From the IMG/VR virus record IMGVR_UViG_3300040801_002535: DNA of 59,732 nucleotides; one strand, written 5' to 3'. The translations under genes were made by a program, and so were the position numbers. Of this stretch, positions 5,570 through 59,732 are shown piece after piece. The notes under the pieces are model-generated. The model was given only the letters and a program-made list of their open reading frames with translations. It did not search any database and was not told the DNA's origin. The stretch's first letter is position 1; each line of letters begins with the position of its first letter. Source of the DNA: a virus.

Positions 5570-6276
5570 TCAAACCGCTTTTGTTCAAGGCTCTGGTCTA
5601 CCGGATACTGGCGAGCGGCGTCACCATGACAGCAGCCTATTTTATAACCGGATCCGTTGAGCTCGCTGGCACCATCGTGATTTTTGAATTCGTAGGTAAA
5701 ATAATGTTCTACGCTGGCTTCGATTATGTCTGGCGCTGGGGAAGAATATATCTACGCGGTCCGGGATCGGTAATCTGGCTGACCGGACTTCCCTGTTCTG
5801 GGAAGACGACTATTGCCAAGGCGCTTGGAGCATTGCTATCTGCTTCCGGAAAGCGGGTCGAGATCCTAGATGGTGATGAATTGCGTCATACGCTTTGCTC
5901 CGACCTAGGGTTTAGTGATGAAGACAGGGCCGAGAATCTGAGGCGGGTAAAACACCTCGCAAAGATGAAGGCCAAAGATGGTAGCGTTGTTATCTGCGCG
6001 TTTGTTTCCCCGAGCGGAAAAGAGCGGGAGAGCGTCCGTAACCACATGAGGGAGATTGCCTTCTACGAGGTTTTTGTTAAAGCACCAGCAGCAATCTGCG
6101 CCAAGCGGGATGTTAAAGGGATGTGGGATAAAGCATTCAAAGGTGAAATAAAAGGCTTCACGGGTTATGATGCCCCATATGAAATTCCGCTAAGCCCTGA
6201 AGTGACTTTGGATACCCTTAATTACCCACTGAAGGAATGCGTCCAGAAACTAGCCTCGGTAATCGCGAAGGGATAA
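5566..6276 (+). CDS. cysC: Adenylyl-sulfate (APS) kinase with N-terminal DUF2061-like two-TM domain
   Basis: GLPCSGKTT (P-loop), LDGDELRHTLCSDLGFSDEDRAENLRRV and FTGYDAPYE match CysC almost motif for motif. The N-terminal 60 aa are hydrophobic (MIKPLLFKALVYRILASGVTMTAAYFITG...). Confidence 0.9.
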   Translation: MIKPLLFKALVYRILASGVTMTAAYFITGSVELAGTIVIFEFVGKIMFYAGFDYVWRWGRIYLRGPGSVIWLTGLPCSGKTTIAKALGALLSASGKRVEILDGDELRHTLCSDLGFSDEDRAENLRRVKHLAKMKAKDGSVVICAFVSPSGKERESVRNHMREIAFYEVFVKAPAAICAKRDVKGMWDKAFKGEIKGFTGYDAPYEIPLSPEVTLDTLNYPLKECVQKLASVIAKG

Positions 6277-12623: not shown

Positions 12624-13547
12624 TTAGCCCTTTCTGGCTAGGGCCAAAAACTCAGCCCGCGTAGATGGTTGGTCTTTGAAGACCCCGTGCATAGCTGAGG
12701 TAATTGTGGAAGAACCAATCTTCTCTATCCCCCTGCTTTCCATACAGAAATGACGCGCCCGAATAACGACCCCGCATCCGAGAGGTTGAAGATGCTCCCT
12801 TAAAGCATTCGCGACTTGATTTGTCAAGCGCTCTTGGACTTGCATTCGGCGGGCAAAGACATCTAGCAAACGAGGGATCTTTGATAGGCCGATTATTTTT
12901 CCGTTCGGGATATAGCCGATGGTGGCGGTCCCGAAAATTGGTGCCATGTGATGCTCACAATGGCTGAAGAAAGGGATGTCTTCTACAACCACCATTTCGT
13001 CGCAGCCCTCGGCGCCATCTTCAAATACCTTCAATACATCTTTCGGGTCTTGGTCGTAACCTCGGTACCAGTGCGCCATTGCTTTGGCGACCCGAGCAGG
13101 CGTCTCCTGCAAACCTTCGCGGGAAACATCTTCCCCGATAAACTCCATAATACGACGGATGTTATCCTCAATAGTTTCCGCTGGTCCTTCGAGGCTTTTC
13201 TCCCAAGGGAAAACAATCCATTTACCGATATAATCGAGATCGCTTTTCTTATCTATTAAGGTTACGAAAACGCGGTTTGGATAGCGGTCCGAAAAGGTCC
13301 GCATTGTCTCGCCAGAATCTAGCAAGTCATCAATGAAGAAGTTAGCACTTTCTGGGCTGTCGACAATTTTATACGCGCAGCGCAGGCGGGCAGCGATCGC
13401 GTACATGGCTGGGATGCCACCACGAGGAATCCCATAAAGATAGACATTTTTATCCCGCCTTCTGGAAACAATATGATCAATTTCAGCGGCGGCAGATGCT
13501 GCCAGATTACTAACATCTTGTTGAGTCAATAAACATTTTTCCGACAT
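12624..13547 (-). CDS. folE: Fusion protein: type I phosphoribosyltransferase domain plus GTP cyclohydrolase I
   Basis: N-terminal ~115 aa: YGIPRGGIPAMYAIAARL, PRPP loop FFIDDLLDSGETM, WIVFPWE. C-terminal part: FFSHCEHHMAPIFG, IGLSKIPRLLDVFARRMQVQERLT (FolE type I). Confidence 0.88.
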   Translation of the reverse strand: MSEKCLLTQQDVSNLAASAAAEIDHIVSRRRDKNVYLYGIPRGGIPAMYAIAARLRCAYKIVDSPESANFFIDDLLDSGETMRTFSDRYPNRVFVTLIDKKSDLDYIGKWIVFPWEKSLEGPAETIEDNIRRIMEFIGEDVSREGLQETPARVAKAMAHWYRGYDQDPKDVLKVFEDGAEGCDEMVVVEDIPFFSHCEHHMAPIFGTATIGYIPNGKIIGLSKIPRLLDVFARRMQVQERLTNQVANALREHLQPLGCGVVIRARHFCMESRGIEKIGSSTITSAMHGVFKDQPSTRAEFLALARKG

Positions 13548-13552
13548 AACAG

Positions 13553-14053
13553 TTAATCTCCCAATTCAAAGGCCGCTGAACACTTGGCCGTTTCTTCAAT
13601 GACTACTTTAATAAGTTGAGCTCGGCTATCCCGAAGCACCAGAGGGCCGACTTCCATGACCAAGTATTCCGCCATGTTTTCAGCAGTCGGATTAAAGGGG
13701 AGGTAAACAATGCCCGAAAGGAGGTCCATGGTTGCTTCACTATCCTGTGCCAAGTAACCTTCTGAGTGCGGGTCAGCGCAGCACACAGTTTTGAGCAAAG
13801 GGTCTTGATCCCATGCCAAGAACTTATGGTCCCACTCGAGCTCTAACCATTCGCACAGCTGGGATTTAATTACGCCGAAGTCGATAACACGGCCGACATC
13901 GTCGAGGGCACCGGTAGTTGCATTAGCCTTGGCAGCGACCGTAAAATGAACGCGGTAATTGTGGCCATGAAGGTGCTCGCATTTCCCGCCTTGACCTACT
14001 ACGCGATGCCCAGCGCAGAAGTCATGATAACGCGTAGCTGTAATCCGGCTCAT
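13553..14053 (-). CDS. queD: 6-carboxy-5,6,7,8-tetrahydropterin synthase
   Basis: HDFCAGHRV and CEHLHGHNY motifs. ATGA overlap with queC. Confidence 0.88.
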   Translation of the reverse strand: MSRITATRYHDFCAGHRVVGQGGKCEHLHGHNYRVHFTVAAKANATTGALDDVGRVIDFGVIKSQLCEWLELEWDHKFLAWDQDPLLKTVCCADPHSEGYLAQDSEATMDLLSGIVYLPFNPTAENMAEYLVMEVGPLVLRDSRAQLIKVVIEETAKCSAAFELGD

Positions 14054-14835
14054 AACTCGTCTCCAAAATCCATCGGCATAGTCTCACCGGCTTTGAGGTA
14101 GTTTAAGGATTTCGGCAGGTCCATGAGACCTTCCGAAACAGCGCGCAAGATCAACGGGTCAGGTAAGCCAGCTTCTAGGAATCCTTTTGCCCGTAGCAAG
14201 GTCGCATGGTCTTTTCCGATTGGAGGGTATGCGCCATCATAAGCGGTGTGTGTCCAAGCCATCGCCGCCCAGCAACGGGGACTGCCATGAGCCATATGAA
14301 CTGATTCAGCTTTAGTCAAATTCATCAACGGGGTGTGAATTTTCAGCTTCCGGAATTCATCGCTGTCATCATAACCCAGACCCTCGCGAATAGCATCTTG
14401 GGTCGCATTAATAAAGTCTTGCCGGCAATCTGGGTACCCGCCTGAATCCTCTTCGCATACTCCAGTAACAAGATTGGTTGAGCCAATGGAGTAAGCGTAG
14501 TTGGCCGCGAGGGTTAAGAATAAAAGATTCCGACCTGGAACAAAGGTCTTTTCCAGACCGCCCGGAAGTGAATATTCATCGGCGTATTGCTCTAATTCAT
14601 TCGAGCTTACGAGGGGTGAGGTGCTCCGCAAAATGGGACCGACCTCAATAACCACATGTTCTTCGACGCATCCTAGCATGGCAATCTTCCGTGCAGCATC
14701 AAGCTCAATAGCATGGCGCTGACCGTAATCGAAAGTAATTGCGTATACTTTTTCGAAGTGTTCCTTTGCCCAGAACAGACATGTAGTGGAATCTTGTCCG
14801 CCTGACAAGACTACGACTGCTGATTTCGCCTTCAT
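14050..14835 (-). CDS. queC: QueC-family 7-cyano-7-deazaguanine synthase homologue lacking the Zn-cysteine cluster
   Basis: VVLSGGQDSTTC (PP-loop), FDYGQRH, FVPGRNLLFLT and CEEDSGGYPDCR are all QueC-like. The Cys-x8-CxxCxxC region is replaced by HTAYDGAYPPIGKDHATLLRAKGF, and there is a ~35-aa C-terminal extension. Confidence 0.85.
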   Translation of the reverse strand: MKAKSAVVVLSGGQDSTTCLFWAKEHFEKVYAITFDYGQRHAIELDAARKIAMLGCVEEHVVIEVGPILRSTSPLVSSNELEQYADEYSLPGGLEKTFVPGRNLLFLTLAANYAYSIGSTNLVTGVCEEDSGGYPDCRQDFINATQDAIREGLGYDDSDEFRKLKIHTPLMNLTKAESVHMAHGSPRCWAAMAWTHTAYDGAYPPIGKDHATLLRAKGFLEAGLPDPLILRAVSEGLMDLPKSLNYLKAGETMPMDFGDEL

Positions 14836-14838
14836 TTT

Positions 14839-15528
14839 TTACTCCAAGTCTAGAAGTTTATGGAGCTGTAGGCATACTGTATACCCATGCTCCAGACAGC
14901 TTTCAACAACGGCTTCACGGGCCAAATCATTATGCAGCTGAACCCCGTGATCGATAGGCTGTAAATAAATGTTGCCATCGAAGTTTTCTGGTGGTCGCGC
15001 TGGAATATGATTATAGCCGAGAACTGTAATTGGCAGGCCGTCATCAATGGACAGCTGCTGGAAATCGCCGACATATTTATATGCCGTAATATGTTCCAGA
15101 AGCTCCTCTGCGATGACTGGGGTTTTCGGGCTGCAGACTACGATGACATCATTGTAATCTACAAGCGGGTCGTAGGTTGTTCCGTTAGTCTCAATCTGGA
15201 CAAGGAAACCTTCGCCCTGCAATGCTTCTATCAGCGGACCGATAGACTGTCGAAATGGTTCGCCACCAGTAATAACACAAACATAATTACGATGCGATGG
15301 CGGGACAAGCTGACGAGCTCTAAGCGCTAGACCGTCAGGGTGATGTGTGGCGACATGGCCGTACTTTGTGTCGCACTCTGGACAGGCTAGATTACATCCA
15401 GCCAAGCGAATGAAAACCGCTGGTACTCCCGCTAGCGGGCCTTCTCCCTGTATGGAATAGAAGACTTCGTTAACCGAAAGCTGGTACGGTTTGCCCCGTT
15501 CGATTTGACGGGCCATTTGTGTATTCAT
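14839..15528 (-). CDS. queE: 7-carboxy-7-deazaguanine synthase (radical SAM)
   Basis: FYSIQGEG and RLAGCNLACPECDTKY motifs. AAAGGAGG RBS. Confidence 0.9.
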   Translation of the reverse strand: MNTQMARQIERGKPYQLSVNEVFYSIQGEGPLAGVPAVFIRLAGCNLACPECDTKYGHVATHHPDGLALRARQLVPPSHRNYVCVITGGEPFRQSIGPLIEALQGEGFLVQIETNGTTYDPLVDYNDVIVVCSPKTPVIAEELLEHITAYKYVGDFQQLSIDDGLPITVLGYNHIPARPPENFDGNIYLQPIDHGVQLHNDLAREAVVESCLEHGYTVCLQLHKLLDLE

Positions 15529-26312: not shown

Positions 26313-26528
26313 ATGGGCACAGAAGACTTTGACAAACCCGGCAAATTGCTCAGGGAAACCACTTTGCTGCTTCAGTCCGATAAAAGGACACTTATCCAGT
26401 TGCATATCGAAACCGGCCTCCCCTACTTTTGGCTGAAATCGCTTATCGATGAAAAGACCAAGAATCCGTCTGTTAATCGAATTGAATATTTGAATGCTAT
26501 ATTGAAGGAGCAGCAACTTGCGAAATAA
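26313..26528 (+). CDS. Small helix-turn-helix-like protein (71 aa)
   Basis: AAAGGAGGAAAATAC-ATG. The segment RTLIQLHIETGLPYFWLKSLID looks HTH-like. First rightward gene, overlapping the primase start. Confidence 0.6.
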   Translation: MGTEDFDKPGKLLRETTLLLQSDKRTLIQLHIETGLPYFWLKSLIDEKTKNPSVNRIEYLNAILKEQQLAK

Positions 26529-28800
26529 CATTCCACTTGAATTGCGCGAGCGAGACCAGTGGGTATGTGCCGGCCTTGATAAGAAACCTATCAATCCGCG
26601 CACTGGGCAAATGGCATCCCCGACAGATCCTGCCACTTGGGGAACCTTCGAAGAAGCCTGCCGAACCGGATACCCGAATGTTGGTTATGTCCTCGCATCA
26701 TGGGACCCCTACTCTATTATTGATTTAGATAATAAGCCGGAGAATCCTGCCACAGCTGAACAGCTTGCCCGCCATGACTCAATCATGGAAGCCTGCCAAA
26801 GTTATACCGAGCGCAGCACTTCAAAGACTGGGTATCATATTATTGTGCGAGGAGCTATCCCGTCCGGCGTTAATCGCGACCACATCGAAATGTATAGCAC
26901 TGGGCGCTATATGATTTGCACCGGCGATACGGTTCATCACCGGCCAATCAAGGACTGCCAAGAAATACTGACCGGAATGTACGGGCAGATGAAACCCGAG
27001 GTAACCGTCGAGCTCTCCGAACAGGATGGCGATGTCAGTGACATGGCTATTGTGGAGATGGCATCGGGCGCTGTGAATGGGGAAAAGTTTGATGCCCTCT
27101 GTTCAGGGGACATGTCTGAATACCCGAGCCAGTCAGAAGCCGATTTGGCGCTCCTGTCTATTATCGCTTTCTACACCCAATCCAATGAGCAGGTACGCCG
27201 CATCTTTAGAATGAGCGCACTTGGCAAAAGAGAGAAGGCCCAAAGAAATGATACCTACATCAACTTCGCCCTTGGCAAGATCAGGGCCAAGCAACCAGCG
27301 CCAGTCGACTTTGACGAACTTAAACTTAACGCGCAAGCGGCGATCGCTACTGCGACGGAAGATCGCCGAGAAGCAGAGAGGCCCGAAATACCCGCAACAA
27401 CTCAGCCCGCTCCAAGCCAGCATGAACAAGCGCCGATTTCTGAACCTGTGCCACTCCACGGCGTTGAACTTCCAATCGGGCTCGTGGGAGAGATGGCACA
27501 GTATATATACTCAAGTGCAATCAGACCCGTACCTGAAATCGCTCTTGCGGCGGCGCTAGCATTGGCAGCCGGCATTTGTGGTCGCAGCTATAATATCAGT
27601 GGCACCGGCCTGAATCAGTATCTTATCATTCTAGCCAAAACAGGCGCCGGCAAAGAAGGCGCTGCTACAGGCATTGATAAGTTGATGTCAGCGGCAAGGC
27701 CAACCATCCCGATGATTGACGAGTTCTCGGGTCCGGGATCTTTCGCCTCTGGACAGGCCATGATAAAGGTTCTAGATACTAAGCCATGCTTCGTTTCGAT
27801 TCTAGGCGAGGTTGGTTTAACCCTCCAGCAGCTCAGCTCTCCTCGCGCTAGCGGTTCTGAGATCATGCTGAAGAAAGTATTCCTTGACCTGTATTCAAAA
27901 TCCGGCTGGGACAAAATGCTCAAGTCAACCGCCTATTCCGATTCTGAGAAGAACACCAAAATAGTCCAAGCGCCGAATGTTACCCTGCTCGGCGAATCAA
28001 CCCCCGAGGCATTCTTCGATGGGATTGACGAGAGCCATATCGCCGAGGGCTTGATACCCCGATTCAGCATAATCGAATATAAAGGAAAACGCCCACCGCT
28101 CAACCATAATGCAGACCATGCACCGGACCAAAGGATGCTCGCGCGCTTTATCGAAATGGCAACCGTTTCCTTGACGATGATGAATAACGGCACTTGCGCT
28201 CCGGTCTCCATCGAGACGGAAGCGAATAACCTGCTACTGGCATTCAACAACGAAGCTGATTCCGTTATCAATAAGTCAAGCCAAGATGTTGAATGTCAAC
28301 TTTGGAATCGGGCCCACCTGAAAGCACTCAAGCTGGCAGGGCTGATAGCAGTCGGCACCGACCCGCATAACGCGGTAGTGACTCCGCAGATAGCGCAATG
28401 GGCAATCACCTTTGTGAAGAAGGATATCACGACCGTTGCCAAGCGGTTTGCATCCGGCGATGTTGGGCAGGGCAACGGAAAACAAATAGCCGATTTGAAA
28501 TCAGCTATCAACCATTTCTTAACTTCCAAACCCGGAGCGCTAAAGAGTTACGGTGTGCCAACCAATTTCCACAGTGACATGATAATTCCATACACTTACT
28601 TTCATCGGCGACTTGATAAGCGCGCCTCGTTTAGAAAAGATAGTGGCGGCTCAACCAGAGCAGTGCAATCCGCTATCCAAGTTCTAATCGACTCGGGAGA
28701 TTTGATTCAGATACCCCCGAAACAAATCACTGACAAGTATAAAAGCAGTTCGAAATGTTTCGCTGTTACAAATAGTTGGGATGGATCGTCTTATTTATAA
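26518..28800 (+). CDS. Bifunctional AEP primase-polymerase fused to a DUF3987/YfjI-like helicase-type domain
   Basis: Prim-pol motifs IIDLDNK, STSKTGYHIIV, EMYSTGRYMICTG. Central SQSEADLALLSIIAFYT (primase C-terminal-type helix bundle). C-terminal P-loop-like ILAKTGAGKEG. TTG start 7 nt after AAGGAG. Confidence 0.8.
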   Translation: MRNNIPLELRERDQWVCAGLDKKPINPRTGQMASPTDPATWGTFEEACRTGYPNVGYVLASWDPYSIIDLDNKPENPATAEQLARHDSIMEACQSYTERSTSKTGYHIIVRGAIPSGVNRDHIEMYSTGRYMICTGDTVHHRPIKDCQEILTGMYGQMKPEVTVELSEQDGDVSDMAIVEMASGAVNGEKFDALCSGDMSEYPSQSEADLALLSIIAFYTQSNEQVRRIFRMSALGKREKAQRNDTYINFALGKIRAKQPAPVDFDELKLNAQAAIATATEDRREAERPEIPATTQPAPSQHEQAPISEPVPLHGVELPIGLVGEMAQYIYSSAIRPVPEIALAAALALAAGICGRSYNISGTGLNQYLIILAKTGAGKEGAATGIDKLMSAARPTIPMIDEFSGPGSFASGQAMIKVLDTKPCFVSILGEVGLTLQQLSSPRASGSEIMLKKVFLDLYSKSGWDKMLKSTAYSDSEKNTKIVQAPNVTLLGESTPEAFFDGIDESHIAEGLIPRFSIIEYKGKRPPLNHNADHAPDQRMLARFIEMATVSLTMMNNGTCAPVSIETEANNLLLAFNNEADSVINKSSQDVECQLWNRAHLKALKLAGLIAVGTDPHNAVVTPQIAQWAITFVKKDITTVAKRFASGDVGQGNGKQIADLKSAINHFLTSKPGALKSYGVPTNFHSDMIIPYTYFHRRLDKRASFRKDSGGSTRAVQSAIQVLIDSGDLIQIPPKQITDKYKSSSKCFAVTNSWDGSSYL

Positions 28801-45212: not shown

Positions 45213-45247
45213 CAAAATAAATCATCCTTTTGAAAGAGGAGGTAGTC

Positions 45248-45691
45248 ATGGCAGGCAACACAATTTTACTTACCAAATTCCAACCGATTCGCCGTGAGGC
45301 AATCAATGTCCAAGAGGCCACGCCAATCTTGCCGGGAAATATCGTAAAGATTACGAACACTGGCGGAGTTGATCTTGCTGGGCCTGTCGCAGTCGGCACC
45401 CCGCTGCTTATCGCAGTCGAGAATGATCTTTACGGTAAAGGCGTTTCTGATAGCTACGCCCTGAATGATTTGATCCAAATGGAGCATCTCCAGTCTGGGG
45501 ACGTTGTTCAGGTCATGGCCGTTGCCGGTGCCGGCTTCAGTGCTGCAGTTGGCACTCCTCTTTATCTTGACGCTTCGGGTACTGTATCAACAGCCAAAGG
45601 AGTCAACACGCTGGCGTCTTTTGTTGCCCTGCAAGCTCTTACTATTGCGACTGGTGGCAATAACACCTTAATTGATGCTCTCGTTTGCTAA
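45248..45691 (+). CDS. Head decoration / DUF2190-like protein
   Basis: AGAGGAGGTAGTC-ATG. Gly/Ala/Val-rich beta protein immediately upstream of the major capsid gene. Confidence 0.6.
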   Translation: MAGNTILLTKFQPIRREAINVQEATPILPGNIVKITNTGGVDLAGPVAVGTPLLIAVENDLYGKGVSDSYALNDLIQMEHLQSGDVVQVMAVAGAGFSAAVGTPLYLDASGTVSTAKGVNTLASFVALQALTIATGGNNTLIDALVC

Positions 45692-45732: not shown

Positions 45733-46767
45733 ATGGATATTCTTAACACTAATGGATTGGCTACTGGATCAGTAGCCCAAAAGCTGGCAGCGCTTGGTAT
45801 GCGAACCAACGCTCTGCGCCCGTACGTCGATGCCAACGGCAACGCCTACATCAGCGTGAATGGTAAAGCCGTTCAGGTCTCAAACGCTACTCTCCGCAAG
45901 GACGAGTGGGAATTTTATGATGACGTCTTGGTTCGCACCGCTCGCGAACGCATGATTGGTACGCAAGACCTTATTGATCGCGGCCTTACCTTTTCAACTC
46001 CCGGATTGTCGAAGACCGTCCTCGAGACCGAAAATGTTGGCGAATTCACCCCTGCTGAGTTGAGCATGGATGGAATTTCCCGCTCTAAAGGTGATCGTCC
46101 GAACTTCGAGCCTGTTTACCTGCCCTTGCCGATTATCCACAAGGACTTTGCACTAAATGCACGGACTCTTGCGGCTTCTCGTCAAACTGGCGAGGCACTC
46201 GATGCTACTGGCGTTGAGCTTGCTACCCGTCAGGCCATCGAGAAATCAGAAGACTTACTCTTCACTGGTTCCGGCCAGTACTCCTTCGGTGGTGGCACCA
46301 TCTACGGTTACTCGGATTTCCCAAGCCGTAACACTGGATTCCTGTCCGCTGACTGGGCAACAGCCACCGGCGAGCAAATCCTGACCGATGTCTTGGCCAT
46401 GAAAGCATCCCTGAATGCCGACGGCTTCTACGGTCCTTTCGTCCTCTATGTCCCAACCACTGCAGAAGCAGGGCTGGACAAAGACTTCAAGGCTGCTTCC
46501 GATAAATCGGTTCGTCAGCGCCTTCTGGAAATCAACATGATCGACGACATCAAAGTCGCCGACAAGCTGGCAGCACAATCCGCCATCTTGGTTCAGATGA
46601 CCAGTGACGTTGTTCGCCTCGTAAGCGGTATGCCTTGGCAGGTTGTTGAGTGGAGTGTCGAAGGTGGCATGGCATTCAACTACAAGGTCATGGGTATCCA
46701 AGTTCCTCAGCTTCGTGCCGATCAGGCTGGCAAGTGCGGGATCGCCCATTACACCGTCAATCTTTAA
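45733..46767 (+). CDS. Major capsid protein (HK97 fold, encapsulin-like family)
   Basis: 344 aa with GAAGGAGG RBS, followed by a strong terminator. The sequence resembles encapsulin/linocin-like phage capsid proteins. Confidence 0.85.
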   Translation: MDILNTNGLATGSVAQKLAALGMRTNALRPYVDANGNAYISVNGKAVQVSNATLRKDEWEFYDDVLVRTARERMIGTQDLIDRGLTFSTPGLSKTVLETENVGEFTPAELSMDGISRSKGDRPNFEPVYLPLPIIHKDFALNARTLAASRQTGEALDATGVELATRQAIEKSEDLLFTGSGQYSFGGGTIYGYSDFPSRNTGFLSADWATATGEQILTDVLAMKASLNADGFYGPFVLYVPTTAEAGLDKDFKAASDKSVRQRLLEINMIDDIKVADKLAAQSAILVQMTSDVVRLVSGMPWQVVEWSVEGGMAFNYKVMGIQVPQLRADQAGKCGIAHYTVNL

Positions 46768-46788
46768 TCTTTTAAATTGACACCCACG

Positions 46789-46816
46789 CCCGGACCCTTC
46801 GCTGGGTCCGGGTTTT
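46789..46816 (+). terminator. Rho-independent terminator after the capsid gene
   Basis: cccggaccc-ttcgct-gggtccggg followed by tttt. Confidence 0.75.
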
Positions 46817-46839
46817 CCATTTAATAAAGGAGAACAGTG

Positions 46840-47331
46840 ATGGCCGCTAAAAAACATGAGTACATTGTACAGGCCGGCAAGCATCGCAACGAAGACGGAA
46901 CCTACTCTCGAAAAGGGGAAAAGGTTCTTCTGACTACGGAGCAAGCAGAAGCATTCAAAGGCAAGTTTTCTGTAGCGCCTGATGCCGATGCGCCAAAGGA
47001 ACCAACCCAAGCCGAGATCGACGAAAAATCCCGTCTTGAAAAGATTGCCGCCGAGGAGCAGGAAAAGGCCGATAAAGAAAAGGCCGAAGAAGATGCTGCT
47101 CAGGATCTTCTGGACAAAGAAAAGAAAGAAGCGGACGAGGCTCAGGAAAAAGCAGATGCCGCTAAAGAGAAAGCGGACGAAGCGACAGCAGCCGGCGAAT
47201 CTGTGGCAACAAGCGTAAAGATGATCCGTCCGGGTCAATACAACGTTCTTGACCAAAACGAAAAGGTCATGAATACTGAGCCCTTGAAGAAGGCCGCTGC
47301 TGATGCGCTAGTCGCCAAAGCTACGGTTTAA
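46840..47331 (+). CDS. Lys/Glu-rich coiled-coil protein (163 aa)
   Basis: AAGGAGAACAGTG-ATG. Central EKADKEKAEEDAAQDLLDKEKKEADEAQEKADAAKEKADE. Confidence 0.65.
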   Translation: MAAKKHEYIVQAGKHRNEDGTYSRKGEKVLLTTEQAEAFKGKFSVAPDADAPKEPTQAEIDEKSRLEKIAAEEQEKADKEKAEEDAAQDLLDKEKKEADEAQEKADAAKEKADEATAAGESVATSVKMIRPGQYNVLDQNEKVMNTEPLKKAAADALVAKATV

Positions 47332-47334
47332 ACT

Positions 47335-48021
47335 ATGTCCATTATCCCCGCCTCAGAGGTCAAACCAATCTGGCAGGGTGAACGTGTTTTTATTATAGGC
47401 GGAGGCCCATCTCTTAATCGAATGGACCTCCGCCCTATTTATGATCAAAACGTAATCGGCGTAAACAATGCTTTTGAGCTTGGCGACTGGGTGGATGTTT
47501 TATGGGCACTCGATGACCGCTGGGTAGAATGGAATTGGGATGCCCTTCTCAATTTCAAAGGAATCCAATATTACGGCACAACCCCGCACTGCAAACTCCC
47601 AGACGGAGCCAAGCGGATTGAGCGCTGGAACGTTGACAATAACACGCAAAACCATACCGGCCTGATAACAGACAGGCGTGATCAAATCAAAGCAAACTTC
47701 AGCAGCGGAGCGTCCGCTATTAATCTAGCAATTCATCTTGGAGCGGCTGAGATCATCCTTCTTGGCTTCGATATGAAAGTTGTGGCTGGTAGCCACAACT
47801 GGCATGGAAGTCATCAGCACCGCCCAAAAGACACAATATATGTTGACAGATTTATAAAAGCATTTTATCCTATAAGCAAAGATTTAGACCGGATTGGCGT
47901 TACCTGTTTAAATGCTACTCCCGATAGCGCCTTGGATATGTTTGACCATGTTGTCTTGGAGGATTTATTTTGCACGAACCAATCTTCATCACTGGCTGCG
48001 CCCGCTCAGGCACCTCTTTAG
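47335..48021 (+). CDS. Sialyltransferase-fold (GT42 / DUF115 Maf-like) glycosyltransferase candidate
   Basis: ERVFIIGGGPSLN near the N-terminus, IGVNNA, SGASAINLAIHLGAAEIILLGFDM and a His cluster SHNWHGSHQH. These parallel the Cst-II/Maf motifs VIIAGNGPSL, TSGVYMCAVAIALGYKEIYLSGIDF and the catalytic His region. Confidence 0.55.
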   Translation: MSIIPASEVKPIWQGERVFIIGGGPSLNRMDLRPIYDQNVIGVNNAFELGDWVDVLWALDDRWVEWNWDALLNFKGIQYYGTTPHCKLPDGAKRIERWNVDNNTQNHTGLITDRRDQIKANFSSGASAINLAIHLGAAEIILLGFDMKVVAGSHNWHGSHQHRPKDTIYVDRFIKAFYPISKDLDRIGVTCLNATPDSALDMFDHVVLEDLFCTNQSSSLAAPAQAPL

Positions 48022-48638
48022 TAGCCCGCTGTGTTAAAGCGTCCGGTGCTGCTGGCGGTACCCTTATTCTTGGCGATAGCAATAATCCTCACGGCTTCTT
48101 CGAGAATGCTGCCATTCGAGAGAAGTTGATAAAGCCAGCACTCATCGCGAATGGCTGCGACCCTCTCGGTCAAGATCCACTCCCAGATCCAGAGGACCCA
48201 ATAACCACTATACCAGACCTACGTAAAAAGGTCCAGTCTATTCTTCAAGCAGAAGGCGTTGACCTAGCCAAGCCTTGGTTTTACAAGTGTGCGAAGATCC
48301 ACTTGATGTGGAGGGCTTGGCATGGGGAATTCCCAGACGCGAAATATATTATCGTACGCCGGTCGGAAGCCATGATTGTGGATAGCTGTCTGCGCACCGG
48401 TTTTATGCAGAGGCACCTCAATGCTACAGGATGGTTCGGCTGGGTCCGCTATCAGCTTGCCCGCTTCGCCGAAATGCGTGATTCTGGGCTTAACGTTAAA
48501 GAGGTTTGGTCGGATAAATTAATTGCTGGCGATTATTCGGAATTGAAAGATGCCCTCGAGTGGGCTGGCCTAACGTTCGATCCCGAGATTATAAAATCTT
48601 GCATTGATCCAGCTATCTGGACAAGGGGCATAAAATGA
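47970..48638 (+). CDS. PAPS-dependent sulfotransferase family protein
   Basis: 5'-PSB-type loop PIFITGCARSGTSLV and 3'-PB-type YIIVRRSEAMIVDSCLR. TTG start 6 nt after GGAGGA. Overlaps the upstream gene by 52 nt. Confidence 0.7.
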   Translation: MHEPIFITGCARSGTSLVARCVKASGAAGGTLILGDSNNPHGFFENAAIREKLIKPALIANGCDPLGQDPLPDPEDPITTIPDLRKKVQSILQAEGVDLAKPWFYKCAKIHLMWRAWHGEFPDAKYIIVRRSEAMIVDSCLRTGFMQRHLNATGWFGWVRYQLARFAEMRDSGLNVKEVWSDKLIAGDYSELKDALEWAGLTFDPEIIKSCIDPAIWTRGIK

Positions 48639-48988
48639 AAATAATACCTGTTAATTTACAGGCGGCAATGGGATCAGCATTCAACCAGCGAATCCTTGTG
48701 TATAGGGATAAGGCGCGCTCTCTCGGTTATGACTTCGAAGAAGGGGTCGGGACCGCTGCCGTCTTTTCTGAGTTTGGCGATGCTTCCCCAGCGCTGACTT
48801 TGGAGGTTACCCTTGTGACCGGCATAAATGAAAGTGCCATAGTGCTGAGAGCCCCACTAGCCGACATGTCAGCGTCCGGCCTTGTTGCCGGATCCTATGT
48901 ATGGAACTGTAAAATAACACCGGACCTCGGCCAAGAACCAGAAGAGTGGTTGCGCGGGTCTTTTGAAATCCTGCCACAAGGAGTTTGA
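48635..48988 (+). CDS. Hypothetical structural-module protein (117 aa)
   Basis: ATGA coupling to the sulfotransferase gene. Beta-rich. Confidence 0.55.
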   Translation: MKIIPVNLQAAMGSAFNQRILVYRDKARSLGYDFEEGVGTAAVFSEFGDASPALTLEVTLVTGINESAIVLRAPLADMSASGLVAGSYVWNCKITPDLGQEPEEWLRGSFEILPQGV

Positions 48989-48989
48989 G

Positions 48990-51266
48990 ATGCCCGAAGA
49001 TATTTACATTGTCGTGGATAATCCAGTAGCTGTTATCGAGGTCTGCAAGGGCTCGACTACTGAAGGTAGTGGCGATATTGGAACCCAAGATAAGATTCAA
49101 TTCAATCCCGTATTGGGAGCCAACCCAGCGCACTCGGAAGGGCTCGTCTTCTATGACCCAGACAAACACGCACTAAGTTATTATAACGAGTATTCTGGTA
49201 TCACCTTGAATATTGGGCAGGAGGTGCTTTTCCGCGGCCTGAATAATACCGGCGCGACAATCTGGAATGGCTCCGTAGTGACTCCCGGCGCTGGTACCGT
49301 TACGTTGGCCGATGCCTACATAACGGATAAATCCCGTCTGTTGGCAATGGCTACCCATGATATCCCGAACGGCCAGTTTGGTTACTTCACGCGTCTTGGT
49401 CAAGTAGGCGGACTGGAAACAGAAGAGTTCCCTGTCAATACTCTGCTTTATCTTGGGCGGGATGGCGCATTTGTCGCCGAGCAGCCAACCCTCGGCGGCT
49501 ATTCCAATCTTCTCGGAGTCGTAAATATCTCCGATGGAGGAAATGGTGTTATAGCTTTTAACCCCCAAATTTCCACTTTAACGGTAGAGGCAACTGACAC
49601 GAACGGCTTTCCACCAGAGCAGCGGAATAACACCGGGATTGCGGTCAACGCTGGTACACTAGAACTGACCGTAGATGCGGCAGGCTATCCATTCCACTTT
49701 TATGAGAATGGGAATAAGTTCGAAAGACCCGCGCCAGACACAGTGGCCTTTACTAACACCGAAGGGGAATGGTGGTTCTACTATCAAGACGGCGTATTGA
49801 TTTCGGAATACAATCCGAGCGGTGCGCAGCGCGAGCATATCATTCTGAATCACGCATTCGTGAGCAGCTTTTATTGGAATGCCACTGATGGTGTTGTTGT
49901 TCTCGATCATACCGACGAGCGCCATGGCATCAGCATGAGCCCAGCGGTCCACCTTAATCTGCACAAGACAAGAGGAGCTCAATACATTAGCGGGTTTAGT
50001 GTTGGGAACGTCAACGCAGATGCTAACGGCAGTCTGGATCAGCATGCTCAATTCAGTGTAACCTCAGGTACCTACCTCGACGAGGACCTTGAGCATAGTA
50101 GCAATTTCTTTTCAGCAGGCGGAACATACCCCGTGATTTATAACTTGGGTTTGAATGCGAACCTGCGCGAAGGGAGTCAAGCTGGATTTGCTTTCTTGAA
50201 TGCGCCAGCAGGACGGCCCTACTATAATGAGCTAGATGACGGCCAGTGGTTCTTGACCGAGGTACCAAATAACGATTTCGTACTGATTCACCTCTTTAGC
50301 TTCAATGGCGTGAATAAAAATCTAACTGCCGTCATGGGTCAAGCCTTCTATGCTAATCGCAGTGCTGCCCGCGACGGTGCCAACACCGAGATTAGTAATA
50401 TCCTAACCCAGTTACCGCTTGCCGAGATGATCCCGATCGCGACAATAATCTTAGAGTGCCGAGATGTCTATAGTAATAGCGTTAACGCGCGTATTCGTTC
50501 CACCGACGAAGGTGATGACTATGTCGATTGGCGGACAACAGCTTTGTCCACAGGTAATCCTGCAAACAGCCACCTCAATCTGACCGATCTGAAGAAGGCC
50601 GCGTCTGGCGAGGCATGGGGTCATGTGGACAACAGCCTTCCATTGCAGCTCCCTCAGCTTACTACGGCAGAGCGTGATCTGATCATTCCGAACGAGGGGA
50701 TGATAATCAGAAACACGACCACCGCTGAAATTGAAGAATATGCAGCCGGTGCTTGGACGGCTCTTGGCGGTGCTCCTGCTGGTGGCGGAGGCGGCTGGAC
50801 AAAAGTTGGTTCTTATACCTTGGTGGGTGGAGAAACATCTATTCTATTCGACGAGCTGTCTGGTGCCCCTTTGTTTAAGGTGCTTATCAACGGCAACCTA
50901 TTCACGGCGACAACCGATATCGAGGTTATGCCGAACCTACAACTAACCTCAACCGATTATGCTACCTTCAGAGCTATTAATTACGGCAACCCAGGACTAT
51001 TATCTGGATACTGCATCTGCGGATCGCAATCGGCAGTCGGCACCCAGATAAATAATGTAGAGGTAGACGTGCACTCTACTCCTCAAGGTATGATGATGAT
51101 AGGGACTTCGAACGCTGCTCAGGTTGGAGGTGGTTATGTCCATTATGATAATGTTGTAATCAACGAAGATACAACCCAAGCAATCACATCACTTACTGTG
51201 CGCGGTAGGAATTTGCCATCCATGATTCCGGGCGCTACAATTACTGTTTGGGAAGGAGACGTATAA
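48990..51266 (+). CDS. Large fibre/spike-like protein (758 aa) between the capsid and connector genes
   Basis: AAGGAGTTTGAG-ATG at 48990. Beta-rich with a Gly-rich linker (GGAPAGGGGGW) and a C-terminal beta-sandwich-like domain. No enzyme motif recognised. Confidence 0.65.
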   Translation: MPEDIYIVVDNPVAVIEVCKGSTTEGSGDIGTQDKIQFNPVLGANPAHSEGLVFYDPDKHALSYYNEYSGITLNIGQEVLFRGLNNTGATIWNGSVVTPGAGTVTLADAYITDKSRLLAMATHDIPNGQFGYFTRLGQVGGLETEEFPVNTLLYLGRDGAFVAEQPTLGGYSNLLGVVNISDGGNGVIAFNPQISTLTVEATDTNGFPPEQRNNTGIAVNAGTLELTVDAAGYPFHFYENGNKFERPAPDTVAFTNTEGEWWFYYQDGVLISEYNPSGAQREHIILNHAFVSSFYWNATDGVVVLDHTDERHGISMSPAVHLNLHKTRGAQYISGFSVGNVNADANGSLDQHAQFSVTSGTYLDEDLEHSSNFFSAGGTYPVIYNLGLNANLREGSQAGFAFLNAPAGRPYYNELDDGQWFLTEVPNNDFVLIHLFSFNGVNKNLTAVMGQAFYANRSAARDGANTEISNILTQLPLAEMIPIATIILECRDVYSNSVNARIRSTDEGDDYVDWRTTALSTGNPANSHLNLTDLKKAASGEAWGHVDNSLPLQLPQLTTAERDLIIPNEGMIIRNTTTAEIEEYAAGAWTALGGAPAGGGGGWTKVGSYTLVGGETSILFDELSGAPLFKVLINGNLFTATTDIEVMPNLQLTSTDYATFRAINYGNPGLLSGYCICGSQSAVGTQINNVEVDVHSTPQGMMMIGTSNAAQVGGGYVHYDNVVINEDTTQAITSLTVRGRNLPSMIPGATITVWEGDV

Positions 51267-51267
51267 G

Positions 51268-51648
51268 ATGAGGGTAACTGTTACCAATAACAAAGTGACT
51301 GCCACCGAGGAGGAAACATTCAGCCTTACACCAGAGCAGCAGCAGGCAGAGGCTTTTCGTGCCCTTAAAGAGGTTGGAGAGGTGCTCGTAACCAACCTAA
51401 TTCAGCAACGGGTCGACACGTACAATGCTGCTCATGGGCTCGTTTTCGAAAGCGCTCATTCATGCTCAAACTATAGGGACATTGCTGGTTACACCCATCG
51501 CCAATTCTGCGATGACATTTGGTTATGGAATGTCGCCGTTTGGGAAGCGGCTCGAGCGATCATGTACGCCGTAGTGATTGGTGCCAGAACAGCCCCTAGC
51601 GAAGCAGAGCTATTAGCAGAGCTTCCAGCATACGAAGGGGTAGAATAA
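51268..51648 (+). CDS. Hypothetical protein (126 aa), possible fibre accessory/chaperone
   Basis: AAGGAGACGTATAAG-ATG, immediately after the fibre-like gene. Confidence 0.5.
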   Translation: MRVTVTNNKVTATEEETFSLTPEQQQAEAFRALKEVGEVLVTNLIQQRVDTYNAAHGLVFESAHSCSNYRDIAGYTHRQFCDDIWLWNVAVWEAARAIMYAVVIGARTAPSEAELLAELPAYEGVE

Positions 51649-51926
51649 TGCGCTTTATAAAGAACTTCTTTTACTGGATTGACCAAGGCGCTAACCTTCT
51701 TGGCGGAAATATATGGAATTGGTTTTATGGCCATGAGCCTACATGGTTTGGATATCGGGACGAAACATTAAGCAGTGCTATGGGTAAGGCAATGCGTTAT
51801 CATGTAAAACACAACCAACCAGCAAAGCACCACTATTTTATTGTTGCTTGCATCTGGTTCCTTGAGAAGGTCGATCCCGGTCATATATCAAGGTCTATTG
51901 AAGACGACGAAGGGAGACAGGTCTAA
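51648..51926 (+). CDS. Hypothetical protein (92 aa)
   Basis: TAATG coupling on both sides. Confidence 0.5.
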   Translation: MRFIKNFFYWIDQGANLLGGNIWNWFYGHEPTWFGYRDETLSSAMGKAMRYHVKHNQPAKHHYFIVACIWFLEKVDPGHISRSIEDDEGRQV

Positions 51927-52291
51927 TGCCAATCATATCCTCAACGGAGGTTAAGGCAATCATCACAACGAAGTATGATGATGTCGCTCCATTTATTAAG
52001 GTTGCTGAAGTATTCTTGGCAGACAAGTTTTCCGGCGTCTCGATTGGGACTGCGCTTAATAAAGAAATTCATCGTTGGACTGCCGCGCATTTCATCTCGA
52101 TCTCCGATCCAAGACTCACCGAAAAAGAAGTTGGTGAGGCCACCGAGAAATTCAATAACAAACTGACTGGCAATACCGAGGGTCTCAAAGCTACTATGTA
52201 CGGCAGGCAAGCCATCGCCCTTGACCCGACCGGCCTGTTGGCGAAAGCTACCAACCGCGCTGCTACTTTTGAGGCGATAGGCCAATGCTAG
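51926..52291 (+). CDS. Head-tail adaptor (DUF4054-like)
   Basis: Position and size fit. The WTAAHFISI segment is typical of DUF4054 adaptors. Confidence 0.6.
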   Translation: MPIISSTEVKAIITTKYDDVAPFIKVAEVFLADKFSGVSIGTALNKEIHRWTAAHFISISDPRLTEKEVGEATEKFNNKLTGNTEGLKATMYGRQAIALDPTGLLAKATNRAATFEAIGQC

Positions 52292-57933: not shown

Positions 57934-59732
57934 GCCTCGCATTGAGTTCTAGCTTTTTAACCGAAGCGAAGAAACCCGGCAAGAAGCCACAGCTGTTGAT
58001 GCAGATAGAAACTCCGGATGCTCTTAGCGCCATTCTGGATACGAAAGCGCAATGGGACAACAGCTCCACCTTGCTGCGGGTAGACACTTCTATTGAAGAC
58101 GGAAGCGTAACGCTCGCCGATAAAAAGCCTGTTCTAAATGGGTTTGGCGCAGCCATCGTAAACTTCCCGCTTGGACCGTCCTCACAGATGGGCTACGACG
58201 CCGTCAGCGCTGAGGTTGAACATAATGAATTCGTTTGGGGCGTTCAGGATGTCCTGCAGATACGGATCGGTAAACAAGGTGATAGCAGCAAACCGTGGGT
58301 GTTTGGTCAAGACTACGGGACTGGAGAGGCCACTGGTACTGTTAGGTTGAATGTTCGGGATTCAAAAGGCGGAACGCTGTTACATTATTTCGATTTTGAT
58401 GTGACGCTCCCTATAGTGTATACCACAAGCATGACGGTCTCCAACTATTATTGTGTTTGGGGTGCTTCCATCGCGCTCCCCGTTGACGATTTCCGCGTCG
58501 ATCCACCAATTTTACTTAGCGCAGGAACGCGGTGCTGGCTCGATCTTCAGATTCTTAGCATGAATGCTCCATCATACTATCCCGGAACTTTATATCCGTC
58601 GCTGCTTTATAGTGGCACCAATATGACCTTCACACCAACTTCTGGCCGTATGTTGACCGCCAATCTGGATCTTTTGGAGACGCCGTCTGAGCCTAGCAAG
58701 ATATTGATTGATGATAATTCTCCAGCCGATACCAATCTATCGTACATAGCATTCGCGGACGATTTCACGCCACCGACTACACTTAGGGGTTCCGTAGTCG
58801 ATGGGAGTCTCGTTGGTACTTCTGGATTCCGTTATGTACGAATACAAGCGGATTTCGCAAGCTCATACGGAGCGCGTCCTGTGGTCAGGTCAATTGCGCT
58901 TGCCGGAGGCAATGATGCTTATGTGTTCCTTAGTAATACCCCAAATTCTGGTGGTGTTCGGTGTCTCCCCTTACTGATAGAAAAAAGTGCTGGAGTGCTC
59001 AAGTCCCAGATCAATCGGGATAAGGTTACGACGCTTTCCGAAGTTGCTCCGGGATCTGTGTTCGAGAAAAGCATGAGCAATCTTCTTGCTACCGGATATT
59101 TGAAGAACAAGCCAGTGACTTTGTCCGTTGGCTATGAGGGTCTTGCCCTTAGTGCATTCGCTCCTATATTCACCGGATCATGGTATGATTATCGCGTTAA
59201 TCAGGTTTCAAAAACAACGGATATTCAGCTCCGCGATATTCTGACGCCTTTCATCAAAATCAAACTGCCACGGGAAACGTCAGACGCAAGTGGCAACATC
59301 ACCACTGCTTCTTTGATTTGGACGGATGAGAATGCCATCCAAATTCTATTGGATATATGGGACGCGATGGGTCTGGCTGACCGATTCATAGCAGTAGCCG
59401 AATGGGAGGCGTTGCGCGACGGGGATTATAGCGGAGCAGAGTACAATCTGACGCGAACTCTTTTCGCCGGAAAACCCGTGGAGGCATTCAAGCTCCTTAG
59501 TGAACTTACGGTCTTATTGAGGATCTTCGCGGTCCCATATAGCAATGGAAAATTATACCCAGCACCCTACAACACGGCAGCAACACCAGCAGCGGACATT
59601 GATGCTCGGTTCTGCGATTTCAAGAACATCGACGGCCAGCAACGCGAGCTGTATACACGCCAACTGTTCTACTACAGTCCATACACTACAACGCCAAGCG
59701 ACAAAGAAGGGGACTATTCCAAACTATTAGTA
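57930..59732 (+). CDS. Tail tip / host-specificity (J-like) protein, N-terminal part (continues at 1-834)
   Basis: ATGA overlap with the Dit-like gene. I translated the frame by eye to the window end and found no stop. It is missing from the ORF track because its stop lies beyond the junction. Confidence 0.75.
   Translation, partial: MSLALSSSFLTEAKKPGKKPQLLMQIETPDALSAILDTKAQWDNSSTLLRVDTSIEDGSVTLADKKPVLNGFGAAIVNFPLGPSSQMGYDAVSAEVEHNEFVWGVQDVLQIRIGKQGDSSKPWVFGQDYGTGEATGTVRLNVRDSKGGTLLHYFDFDVTLPIVYTTSMTVSNYYCVWGASIALPVDDFRVDPPILLSAGTRCWLDLQILSMNAPSYYPGTLYPSLLYSGTNMTFTPTSGRMLTANLDLLETPSEPSKILIDDNSPADTNLSYIAFADDFTPPTTLRGSVVDGSLVGTSGFRYVRIQADFASSYGARPVVRSIALAGGNDAYVFLSNTPNSGGVRCLPLLIEKSAGVLKSQINRDKVTTLSEVAPGSVFEKSMSNLLATGYLKNKPVTLSVGYEGLALSAFAPIFTGSWYDYRVNQVSKTTDIQLRDILTPFIKIKLPRETSDASGNITTASLIWTDENAIQILLDIWDAMGLADRFIAVAEWEALRDGDYSGAEYNLTRTLFAGKPVEAFKLLSELTVLLRIFAVPYSNGKLYPAPYNTAATPAADIDARFCDFKNIDGQQRELYTRQLFYYSPYTTTPSDKEGDYSKLLV
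59616..59732. repeat. Terminal direct repeat, right copy (identical to 1-117)
   Basis: Exact 117-bp match to the window start. Confidence 0.95.

Follow-up and report, generated by a model that had tools for sequence, protein, structure and literature searches.

What are two enzyme genes, one resembling sialyltransferases and the other sulfotransferases, doing between the capsid and tail genes of a marine-type tailed phage? The question is raised by the virus record IMGVR_UViG_3300040801_002535 of IMG/VR, whose whole stretch of 59,732 nucleotides is called the window here. A sequence-only reading of the window had described, at 47335-48638, two overlapping genes between the capsid genes and an open reading frame (ORF) of 767/758 aa, and both their coordinates and the motifs quoted for them were confirmed; the similarities found for their products lie well beyond chance. 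The two genes are as follows.

47335-48021, + strand: ORF1, 228 aa, ATG start
47970-48638, + strand: ORF2, 222 aa, TTG start, GGAGGA ribosome-binding site 5 nt upstream

ORF1 and ORF2 overlap by 52 nt; the start codon of ORF1 lies 4 nt past the stop of the preceding ORF (46837-47331) and the stop of ORF2 overlaps the start of the next gene. The two genes are translationally coupled inside the late structural operon, and the embedding that had been proposed for them is borne out by these overlaps and by the synteny of relatives described below. In the best-supported reading, to which we give an even chance, ORF1 and ORF2 would glycosylate and sulfate a head protein in the cytoplasm, with 3'-phosphoadenosine 5'-phosphosulfate (PAPS) made by the phage.

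Conservation of the gene pair between capsid and adaptor genes

The genes that bound the pair and its relatives are the following.

45733-46767, + strand: major capsid protein (MCP), DUF6260/HK97-like, Pfam DUF6260 84.6 bits, phrog_771
51926-52291, + strand: head-tail adaptor/connector, with homologues right after the sulfotransferase in relatives

Two samples of IMG/VR loci were compared. The first was anchored on the sulfotransferase, i.e. the ORF2 homologue (at least 563 relatives, 80 examined), and included 33 loci with at least 7.5 kb of upstream sequence. The second was anchored on the MCP and chosen irrespective of the enzymes (80 examined out of at least 571 relatives), and included 50 loci that span the whole MCP-to-tail interval. 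Because 42 of these 50 loci carry both the sulfotransferase and the MptE-like gene, i.e. the ORF1 homologue, and none lacks both (seven have the MptE-like gene only and one, L147, the sulfotransferase only), ORF1 and ORF2 are core head-module genes of this capsid lineage, a large one of aquatic siphoviruses, where they bracket a hypervariable island. The MptE-like gene is thus present in 49/50 and the sulfotransferase in 43/50 of the MCP-anchored relatives. Among the 33 sulfotransferase-anchored loci, 32 have the MptE-like gene and 31 the MCP, in constant order.

MCPs of 40-58% identity precede the ORF1 homologue in all related loci; the MCP is the upstream anchor of the island and a candidate acceptor. 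The ORF1 homologue is always the first enzyme gene after the MCP and one small ORF, and the ORF2 homologue the last before the adaptor, which forms the downstream boundary. On long metagenomic contigs, ORF2 homologues likewise follow a DUF6260 MCP and precede adaptor, terminator and tail-tube genes. In all loci, 284-957 nt separate the end of the MCP gene from the start of the MptE-like gene, and between the end of the MptE-like gene and the start of the sulfotransferase the distance runs from -36 nt (adjacent, as in the window) up to 9.4 kb. The window holds the minimal, two-gene form of the island, as do six other loci.

A total of 72 protein clusters was found in the islands. A GT8-like glycosyltransferase (GT) with a DXD motif is present in 38 loci, and its profile is nearest to Skp1 alpha-galactosyltransferase and glycogenin, which are cytoplasmic protein glycosyltransferases. 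The islands further hold GT2 domains, proteins of about 800 aa in which a methyltransferase is fused to a GT9-like domain, methyltransferases of the Methyltransf_22 and Methyltransf_24 families, extra Sulfotransfer_2 and Sulfotransfer_3 enzymes, and alcohol dehydrogenase (ADH), short-chain dehydrogenase/reductase (SDR), thiamine pyrophosphate (TPP)-dependent, B12-radical-SAM and SPASM enzymes. As far as domain content tells, such a set of enzymes belongs to a locus that assembles and tailors a glycan.

Two further features of the islands were recorded. A sub-cassette comprising a Zn-ADH, a split TPP-dependent E1/transketolase-like enzyme and an SDR recurs (L004:5399-8343, L006:3788-8356, L017, L052, L075) and resembles two-carbon branched-sugar, or possibly phosphonate-type, pathways. 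One SPASM/radical-SAM gene (L046:5762-7774; L049, same cluster) contains an apparent intein with a LAGLIDADG homing-endonuclease domain.

ORF2, a predicted PAPS-type sulfotransferase

ORF2 bears the motifs ITGCARSGTSLV and IIVRRSEAMIVDS and matches Pfam Sulfotransfer_3 (PF13469) with 30.8 bits against a cut-off of 27, from residue 4 to 204 and over profile positions 1-215 of 216. Its homologues in the protein collection number 91, and most of its homologues have a precomputed PF13469 match. A tblastn search of ORF2 against phage records returned no match, and members of the family have come only from metagenomes and from a small number of genomes.

In an alignment of 75 homologues, T8-G9-x-A11-R12-S13-G14-T15-S16, E45, K106, R130/R131 and S139 are invariant or nearly so. 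The 5'-phosphosulfate loop (TGCARSGTS, residues 8-16) is at least 90% conserved and aligns to GVPRSGTTL of the tyrosylprotein sulfotransferases (TPST); within the 3'-phosphate motif, R131 is invariant and S139 at least 90% conserved, and the segment aligns to TPST LLMVRDGRASVHS. When the ORF2 family profile was compared with PDB sequences, TPST1 came first (E 2e-5), and the 5'-phosphosulfate-binding motif (5'-PSB, RSGT), the Lys and the 3'-phosphate-binding motif (3'-PB, R131...S139) all line up with it. The AlphaFold2 model (pLDDT 95.2) was matched by Foldseek, at probability 1.00 and with query TM-scores (TMq) of 0.45-0.61, to TPST2, TPST1, Stf1, Stf9 (Mycobacterium), an olefin-synthase sulfotransferase domain and SULTs, TPST2 having E 2.7e-5 and TMq 0.56-0.59 and Stf1 TMq 0.61. 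The nearest solved relatives are TPST1 and TPST2, along with the mycobacterial Stf1 and Stf9. By Pfam score, both PAPS motifs and fold, ORF2 is classed as a PAPS-type sulfotransferase, as the sequence-only reading had it.

These relatives bring in a possibility that the sequence-only reading had omitted, i.e. direct tyrosine O-sulfation, in which a TPST-like ORF2 would sulfate a head protein and ORF1 would act independently as a separate modification enzyme. The catalytic residues of TPST2 are R78, E99, K158 and S285. ORF2 R12 and K106 align to the catalytic Arg and Lys, R131 and S139 to PAPS-binding residues, and E45, invariant in the family, is probably the equivalent of E99; the C-terminal part of TPST that bears S285, however, is absent from the 222-aa ORF2. 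TPST1 and TPST2 rank nearest by both profile and fold, but Stf1 and Stf9 score equally well and Sulfotransfer_3 also includes carbohydrate and lipid sulfotransferases. The two genes are separable, as shown by L147 and by the seven relatives with the MptE-like gene only, and bacterial fusions of TPR repeats to sulfotransferases hint at protein substrates; against this, the sulfotransferase sits among glycosyltransferases in most islands and in the Halioxenophilus flagellin island described below, and the sole conserved aromatic position in the family of the small ORF upstream of ORF1 is not consistently Tyr. We regard direct tyrosine sulfation as unlikely; going by its sequence, ORF2 could act on a protein tyrosine or on a carbohydrate.

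Supply of the sulfate donor

Two adjacent genes elsewhere in the window bear on the supply of PAPS.

5201-5569, + strand: HxGH adenylyltransferase-like protein, 122 aa, PF01467 CTP_transf_like 22.6 bits (cut-off 21)
5566-6276, + strand: adenosine 5'-phosphosulfate (APS) kinase (CysC) with an N-terminal DUF2061-like hydrophobic extension

The sequence-only reading had assigned the second gene to an APS kinase and supposed that the phage supplies its own PAPS, and the first proposal was confirmed and the second strengthened. The kinase scores 201.5 bits on TIGR00455 (cut-off 138.7) and contains GLPCSGKTT and LDGDELR; judged from its sequence, it is a genuine CysC. In 16/80 related loci, listed in part here, the sulfotransferase has as its immediate neighbour a miniature gene of the APS-kinase type (120-140 aa).

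Mini APS kinase loci: L055:1680-2102, L069:8088-8453, L014, L033, L039, L060, L061, L070, L071, L073, L074, L077, L087, L089

These mini kinases keep the P-loop, LDGD, FSDEGR and YExP, lack about 50 C-terminal residues of canonical CysC and reach 53-75 bits on TIGR00455. In L075, directly upstream of the sulfotransferase, a mini APS kinase forms a fusion with a domain that shares 46% identity with the 122-aa protein. Because mini kinases adjoin the sulfotransferase and are found fused to an adenylyltransferase-like domain, the APS kinase is linked to ORF2, and a phage-made supply of PAPS for ORF2 is well supported by gene neighbourhood.

The stop of the 122-aa gene overlaps the ATG of the APS kinase, which indicates translational coupling. 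Its product is nearest to archaeal nicotinamide mononucleotide adenylyltransferase (NMNAT; PDB 2qjt, E 1.7e-7), and all its NCBIfam matches are far under cut-off; it matched PF01467 and, below cut-off, NMNAT models, and was placed neither in PF01747 nor in CysD/CysN. Another APS_kinase fusion (P0220) was found among 40 metagenomic relatives of the 122-aa protein, and a homologue of its gene is directly followed by an APS_kinase gene in three independent contigs (L216, L217 and L218). From fusion and adjacency, the 122-aa protein is possibly a compact, non-canonical ATP sulfurylase.

As to the hydrophobic extension, the N-terminal 65 or so residues of the APS kinase (5566-5760) are similar to a DUF2061 gene of L216 (E 8e-9). 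DUF2061 stands as a separate mini-gene beside the kinase in two of these three contigs, L216 (6889-7080) and L217 (6348-6548).

ORF1, a peripheral MptE-like/DUF115 enzyme

ORF1 contains ERVFIIGGGPSLN, SGASAINLAIHLGAAEIILLGFDM and an HNWHGSHQH cluster. It matches phrog_4603, labelled 'alpha-2,3-sialyltransferase', with E 2.8e-37, and has 464 homologues in the protein collection; about half of the homologues listed have a precomputed match to PF01973. Because ORF1 itself stays below the PF01973 cut-off, yet has homologues with PF01973 and the phrog_4603 match, it was classified from sequence, at superfamily level, as a peripheral MptE-like/DUF115 member. Within its family, conservation is complete or reaches at least 90% at G22-S26, S124, G125, G144 and D146. 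The AlphaFold2 model (pLDDT 92.4) predicts a modified GT-A fold of Rossmann-like type, in which GxGPS forms an N-terminal loop and SG...LxGxD a central motif.

Foldseek against the PDB placed the archaeal pterin pyrophosphokinase MptE first (8sd5, E 5.8e-4), followed by GT29 sialyltransferases (E 0.008-0.1). In the viral structure library BFVD the ORF1 fold is common in uncultured phages, under the names MptE-like or DUF115, and viral GT29 enzymes match more weakly. The models thus support a sialyltransferase-like fold of the DUF115 superfamily. No transmembrane segment was found in ORF1 or ORF2, both of which are soluble, and neither had a match in NCBIfam. Single-sequence PDB searches with either protein gave marginal or spurious matches only, and profiles and predicted structures were needed.

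Membership of GT42 was also considered for ORF1. The family profile matches Cst-II weakly (E 0.07-0.13) over the GxGPS and SG...LxGxD motifs; Cst-II Tyr156 and Tyr162 face non-aromatic positions of the profile, His188 is beyond the aligned region, and the conserved H157 of ORF1 aligns elsewhere. No Cst chain was among the 50 best Foldseek matches of ORF1. GT42 was rejected on the strength of that E-value and of the tyrosines, which are not conserved. Of the sequence-only proposals, profile and structure searches therefore upheld the PAPS-sulfotransferase fold of ORF2 and the DUF115-type, sialyltransferase-like fold of ORF1, and did not uphold GT42; specificity for sialic acid drew no support either, and the PF01973 match stayed below cut-off. 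For ORF1 we propose the role of an initiating transferase of a CMP-activated sugar of the ulosonic-acid type.

The match to MptE invites a target that is neither virion nor envelope, namely DNA, nucleotides or a small molecule (e.g. glycan hypermodification of DNA bases, or a pyrophosphokinase step related to pterin or 7-deazaguanine), or plain auxiliary genes of sulfur metabolism. The phage does carry a 7-deazaguanine cluster with FolE, QueC and a radical-SAM gene, but ORF1 and ORF2 lie in the head module and not with the replication and DNA-modification genes of the opposite strand. Viral cysC is conventionally read as an auxiliary gene of assimilatory sulfate metabolism, whereas the mini APS kinases adjoin the sulfotransferase and not genes of the cysH/cysD/cysN type. 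We know of no sulfotransferase that acts on DNA. Some virus-encoded glycosyltransferases are known to hypermodify DNA (Pyle 2024, cited in PMC12619734), but synteny of the pair with the MCP is kept across about 50 relatives and with head genes in an unrelated prophage. Taken together, such a target appears quite improbable. A pterin pyrophosphokinase role for ORF1, suggested by the MptE match and by FolE and QueC, was itself judged unlikely because of the head-module synteny with glycosyltransferases.

Homologues in other phages and in cells

ORF1 homologues were found in 77 phage records. In the D3-like Pseudomonas phage PP9W2 the homologue directly follows the MCP, and the connector genes of this phage include a GT-B glycosyltransferase and a methyltransferase; in P7 the homologue is hdmB, in the 'head morphogenesis' operon. 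In CcrColossus it lies after the tail genes, beside an NDP-sugar transferase and a GT9 gene and just before the lysis cassette. A prophage of Euryhalocaulis caribicus (L200) has an adjacent MptE-like and sulfotransferase pair between its Mu-F-like and scaffold/MCP genes; its MCP belongs to an unrelated family (PF09950), and the prophage is a second, independent embedding of the pair in a head module.

Among cellular genomes, two Halioxenophilus chromosomes (L196:8607-15135 and L181) contain a full-length ORF2 homologue, 38-41% identical, within a flagellar cluster, in the order FlgK, flagellin-family gene (FlgL), sulfotransferase, DegT aminotransferase, HMW1C-like glycosyltransferase and FkbM methyltransferase. 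From its gene content this locus is a predicted flagellin glycosylation island, which suggests sulfated flagellin glycans in this genus. By analogy, and as supporting evidence only, it favours a protein-glycosylation role of the phage genes.

The CcrColossus arrangement bears on another explanation, i.e. remodelling of the host envelope. Here the enzymes would modify, late in infection and at the cytoplasmic face of the membrane, the core of lipopolysaccharide (LPS) or lipooligosaccharide (LOS), capsule precursors or flagellin; by covering receptors, the acidic sugar and sulfate would keep progeny from being lost to cell debris or would block superinfection. Typical LPS-core families include GT8, GT9 and Cst-like enzymes, and GT9-like and GT8-like domains occur in the related islands; some relatives are prophages, where surface conversion is common, the N-terminus of the window APS kinase is of the membrane-type DUF2061, and sulfotransferases are found in variable O-chain clusters of marine bacteria. 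Known phage seroconversion genes, however, usually encode membrane proteins, occupy moron positions and have their own promoters. ORF1 and ORF2 are soluble and translationally coupled within head genes, their co-inheritance with the capsid gene holds in 49/50 relatives, the pair recurs in the head module of an unrelated prophage, and expression from the late operon only would leave little time for export of modified LPS. We consider envelope remodelling distinctly less probable than modification of a head protein, if still the strongest of the competing explanations. Between virion and host glycan as target, the computational evidence leans towards the virion.

The Euryhalocaulis prophage was also of note for its portal gene (L200:6433-8331), whose product has a C-terminal Acb1 anti-CBASS phosphodiesterase domain (PF23474, E 2e-34). 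The fusion suggests an anti-defence enzyme delivered within the virion.

Flanking genes and candidate acceptors

Upstream of the ORF pair are a scaffold/protease-like gene, a decoration gene and the MCP gene; the features that surround the pair, other than those already given, are listed below.

45230-45691, + strand: head decoration protein, phrog_766
46788-46813, + strand: GC-rich hairpin (10-pair stem, 8 GC pairs) and T-rich tract, directly past the MCP stop
46837-47331, + strand: small K/E-rich protein, 164 aa, between MCP and MptE-like gene
48635-51926, + strand: lineage-specific 3.3-kb insert (117, 767/758, 126 and 92 aa) between sulfotransferase and adaptor
48963/48990-51266, + strand: 767/758-aa ORF, called 'fibre-like'

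The hairpin is likely an attenuator that sets the ratio of capsid to downstream products and lowers expression of the enzymes relative to the MCP. The small protein belongs to a family in which 27 of the 31 unique intergenic ORFs of related loci cluster, and which shares a C-terminal GGGWYNV..GKVMNE..L motif; a conserved Tyr that could serve as a TPST site was not found in this family, where the aromatic position varies between Y, F and W. The 164-aa protein is possibly an acceptor or a head accessory protein.

The sequence-only reading had called the 767/758-aa ORF fibre-like and named its product as a possible acceptor. No profile match backs the label, and the insert as a whole had no Pfam, NCBIfam or strong PHROG match and no homologue in about 210 related loci. 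In 40/43 relatives the sulfotransferase directly abuts the adaptor, and the 3.3-kb block is an idiosyncratic insertion, outside the conserved module. The fibre-like protein was rejected as a general acceptor, and is an unlikely one in the window, because it has no homologue in the related loci and because the sulfotransferase normally abuts the adaptor. An analogous insert in L004 encodes a Peptidase_S74 fibre, and the block in the window may encode a head fibre or a displaced receptor-binding protein.

Proposed modification of a head protein

A head protein is favoured as target because the enzymes are soluble and translationally coupled, because they are co-inherited with the MCP and because the pair is embedded a second time in a head module. 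As for the acceptor, the donor sugar, the order of the reactions and the benefit to the phage, we infer the following course. Late in infection, read-through past the post-MCP hairpin would give low-level cytoplasmic expression of both enzymes. ORF1 would transfer an acidic sugar, activated as a nucleotide derivative, directly onto a head protein, either ahead of assembly or in the course of it. The most plausible donor would be a CMP-ulosonic acid of the host, such as CMP-Kdo or a nonulosonic acid, and the acceptor candidates are the MCP, the decoration protein and the small protein at 46837-47331. ORF2 would then move sulfate from PAPS onto the added sugar, or onto a protein hydroxyl. The PAPS would come from the phage APS kinase, probably with help from the 122-aa protein, possibly by making APS; with PAPS of its own, the phage would not depend on the host where sulfate is assimilated without PAPS. 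The outcome would be a negatively charged, sulfated capsid coat, whose glycan relatives would elaborate with the variable enzymes of their islands.

Several findings weigh against this course. The PF01973 match of ORF1 (29.1 bits, cut-off 34.6) covers residues 104-148 only, its matches to solved structures are weak (TM-score about 0.4), and the best of these, MptE, is a kinase and not a transferase. The catalytic residues of Cst-II are not demonstrably kept in ORF1, and no solved Maf structure was present among its 50 best Foldseek matches or among its profile matches to E 10. No sugar-nucleotide synthesis gene was recognisable in the scanned parts of the genome. The island, with its LPS-core families, could act on the host lipid A-core. 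The flagellar-island context of ORF2 homologues was seen in one genus only, the other cellular contexts being heterogeneous. Finally, adjacency to the capsid gene is not an established hallmark of virion glycosylation, since in mycobacteriophages the virion glycosyltransferase genes lie near the genome 3' end and not by the capsid gene (Freeman 2023, as cited in PMC11256854).

Comparison with known systems

A close parallel to the proposed modification of a head protein is provided by the flagellin nonulosonic-acid glycosyltransferases called Maf (motility-associated factor). PF01973/DUF115 forms the catalytic domain of Maf, and its modified GT-A fold is akin to that of GT42. ORF1 belongs to the same DUF115 superfamily. 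Maf islands, too, are hypervariable and contain methyltransferases, aminotransferases and other decorating enzymes, and the Halioxenophilus one holds an ORF2 homologue. Unlike Maf, ORF1 is a bare domain of about 200-228 aa that lacks Maf-type flanking domains, and it presumably acts on a phage head protein, where Maf acts on flagellin. Sulfation has, to our knowledge, not been described for Maf systems. In the cytoplasm Maf O-glycosylates Ser/Thr of flagellin, for which CMP-Kdo or CMP-Neu5Ac can serve as donor, and so acts on a self-assembling surface protein before its export or assembly (PMC4065374).

Glycosylation of virions by phage enzymes has been described in mycobacteriophages, i.e. 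Che8 and its relatives. There, phage-encoded cytoplasmic glycosyltransferases, together with methyltransferases, covalently decorate capsid proteins, which gives a glycan shield (Freeman et al. 2023, as described in PMC11256854). That system has other enzyme families and other hosts than the one considered here, no sulfotransferase or PAPS-supply genes are reported for it, and the modification in the window is a proposed one.

With TPST1/2 and Stf1/Stf9, ORF2 shares the Pfam family, the 5'-PSB (xRSGT), the 3'-PB (R...S, 8 residues apart) and the aligned Lys. It differs from TPST in its size of about 220 aa and in being soluble and cytoplasmic, where TPST is a Golgi membrane protein, and identity is 15-19%. 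ORF1 resembles GT42 (Campylobacter Cst-I/Cst-II) and GT29 in the N-terminal GxGPS, the central SG...G...LxGxD and a similar fold class; the acceptor of GT42, by contrast, is an LOS glycan, and TM-scores to ORF1 are about 0.4.

The coupling or fusion of an adenylyl-transfer domain to an APS kinase recalls bifunctional PAPS synthases, but the partner here is an NMNAT-like protein of about 120 aa rather than a canonical ATP sulfurylase (PF01747) or CysDN, and the kinases of many relatives are truncated to 120-140 aa. The context also sets these genes apart from viral cysC, being a sulfotransferase in a virion gene block and not assimilatory sulfate reduction.

In the literature, no description was found of a phage sulfotransferase tied to capsid genes, of a phage PAPS-supply module serving a sulfotransferase, or of DUF115-type enzymes as core head-module genes, in line with the sequence-only reading, which was not aware of a described phage system of this kind. 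The presence of Sulfotransfer_3 genes in genomes of marine phages is mentioned in one paper, according to which their function is unclear, and viromics papers treat viral cysC as an assimilatory-sulfate auxiliary gene. Phage virion glycosylation and flagellin glycosylation islands are already known; the sulfation arm is new, and the mini-enzymes may be.

Other features of the genome

A terminal direct repeat of about 118 bp (positions 1-118 recur at 59615-59732) indicates that the window represents a complete genome, about 59.6 kb long and either closed into a circle or redundant at its ends. Its late operon, on the + strand, runs from terminase through portal, Mu-F, scaffold, decoration and MCP genes to tail terminator, tube protein and tape measure, and continues across the contig ends to a 1107-aa tail protein; by this gene content the phage is a siphovirus. 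Megablast of the 45-52 kb region against 50,697 phage records gave no match, and thus no close cultured relative.

The replication and 7-deazaguanine module is on the - strand, with replication and DNA-modification genes spanning 7.7-29 kb. The replication genes (26518-28800 and 7687-9693) encode an NrS-1-like primase-polymerase/DUF3987 protein and a family A DNA polymerase with a 3'-5' exonuclease domain. A cluster of the preQ0 type (12624-15528, - strand) comprises the following genes and, from their predicted functions, implies a modified guanine in the phage DNA.

12624-13547, - strand: GTP cyclohydrolase I (FolE) with an N-terminal phosphoribosyltransferase-like extension
14050-14835, - strand: QueC
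14839-15528, - strand: radical-SAM QueE-like

Implications for phage biology

A broader picture, which we put forward tentatively and hold to be rather doubtful as a whole, is that of a widespread aquatic phage lineage whose capsids would carry sulfated glycans or sulfotyrosine made by a self-contained phage sulfation pathway. This pathway would lead from a hitherto unrecognised, NMNAT-like mini ATP sulfurylase of about 120 aa, through a full or mini APS kinase, sometimes DUF2061-anchored, to a TPST-like sulfotransferase, while the DUF115-type enzyme would be a capsid O-glycosyltransferase and many viral cysC genes would serve virion decoration, not host sulfur assimilation.

If a head protein is indeed modified in this way, the phage would provide the first instance of a bacterial virus with sulfated virions, and phage virion glycosylation would extend well past mycobacteriophages to a lineage of hundreds of environmental contigs. 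Viral cysC and sulfotransferase genes, now counted in viromics as sulfur-cycle auxiliary genes, would have to be read differently. The analysis also nominates compact enzymes for biochemistry, i.e. APS kinases of 120-140 aa and a candidate ATP sulfurylase of about 120 aa, and the hypervariable island between two fixed genes is a natural library of putative protein-glycan tailoring enzymes. For the phages themselves, a sulfated, polyanionic capsid could alter adsorption to marine polysaccharides and particles, colloidal stability, decay rates, grazing, and immune recognition by hosts and metazoans, with bearing on phage ecology and phage therapy.

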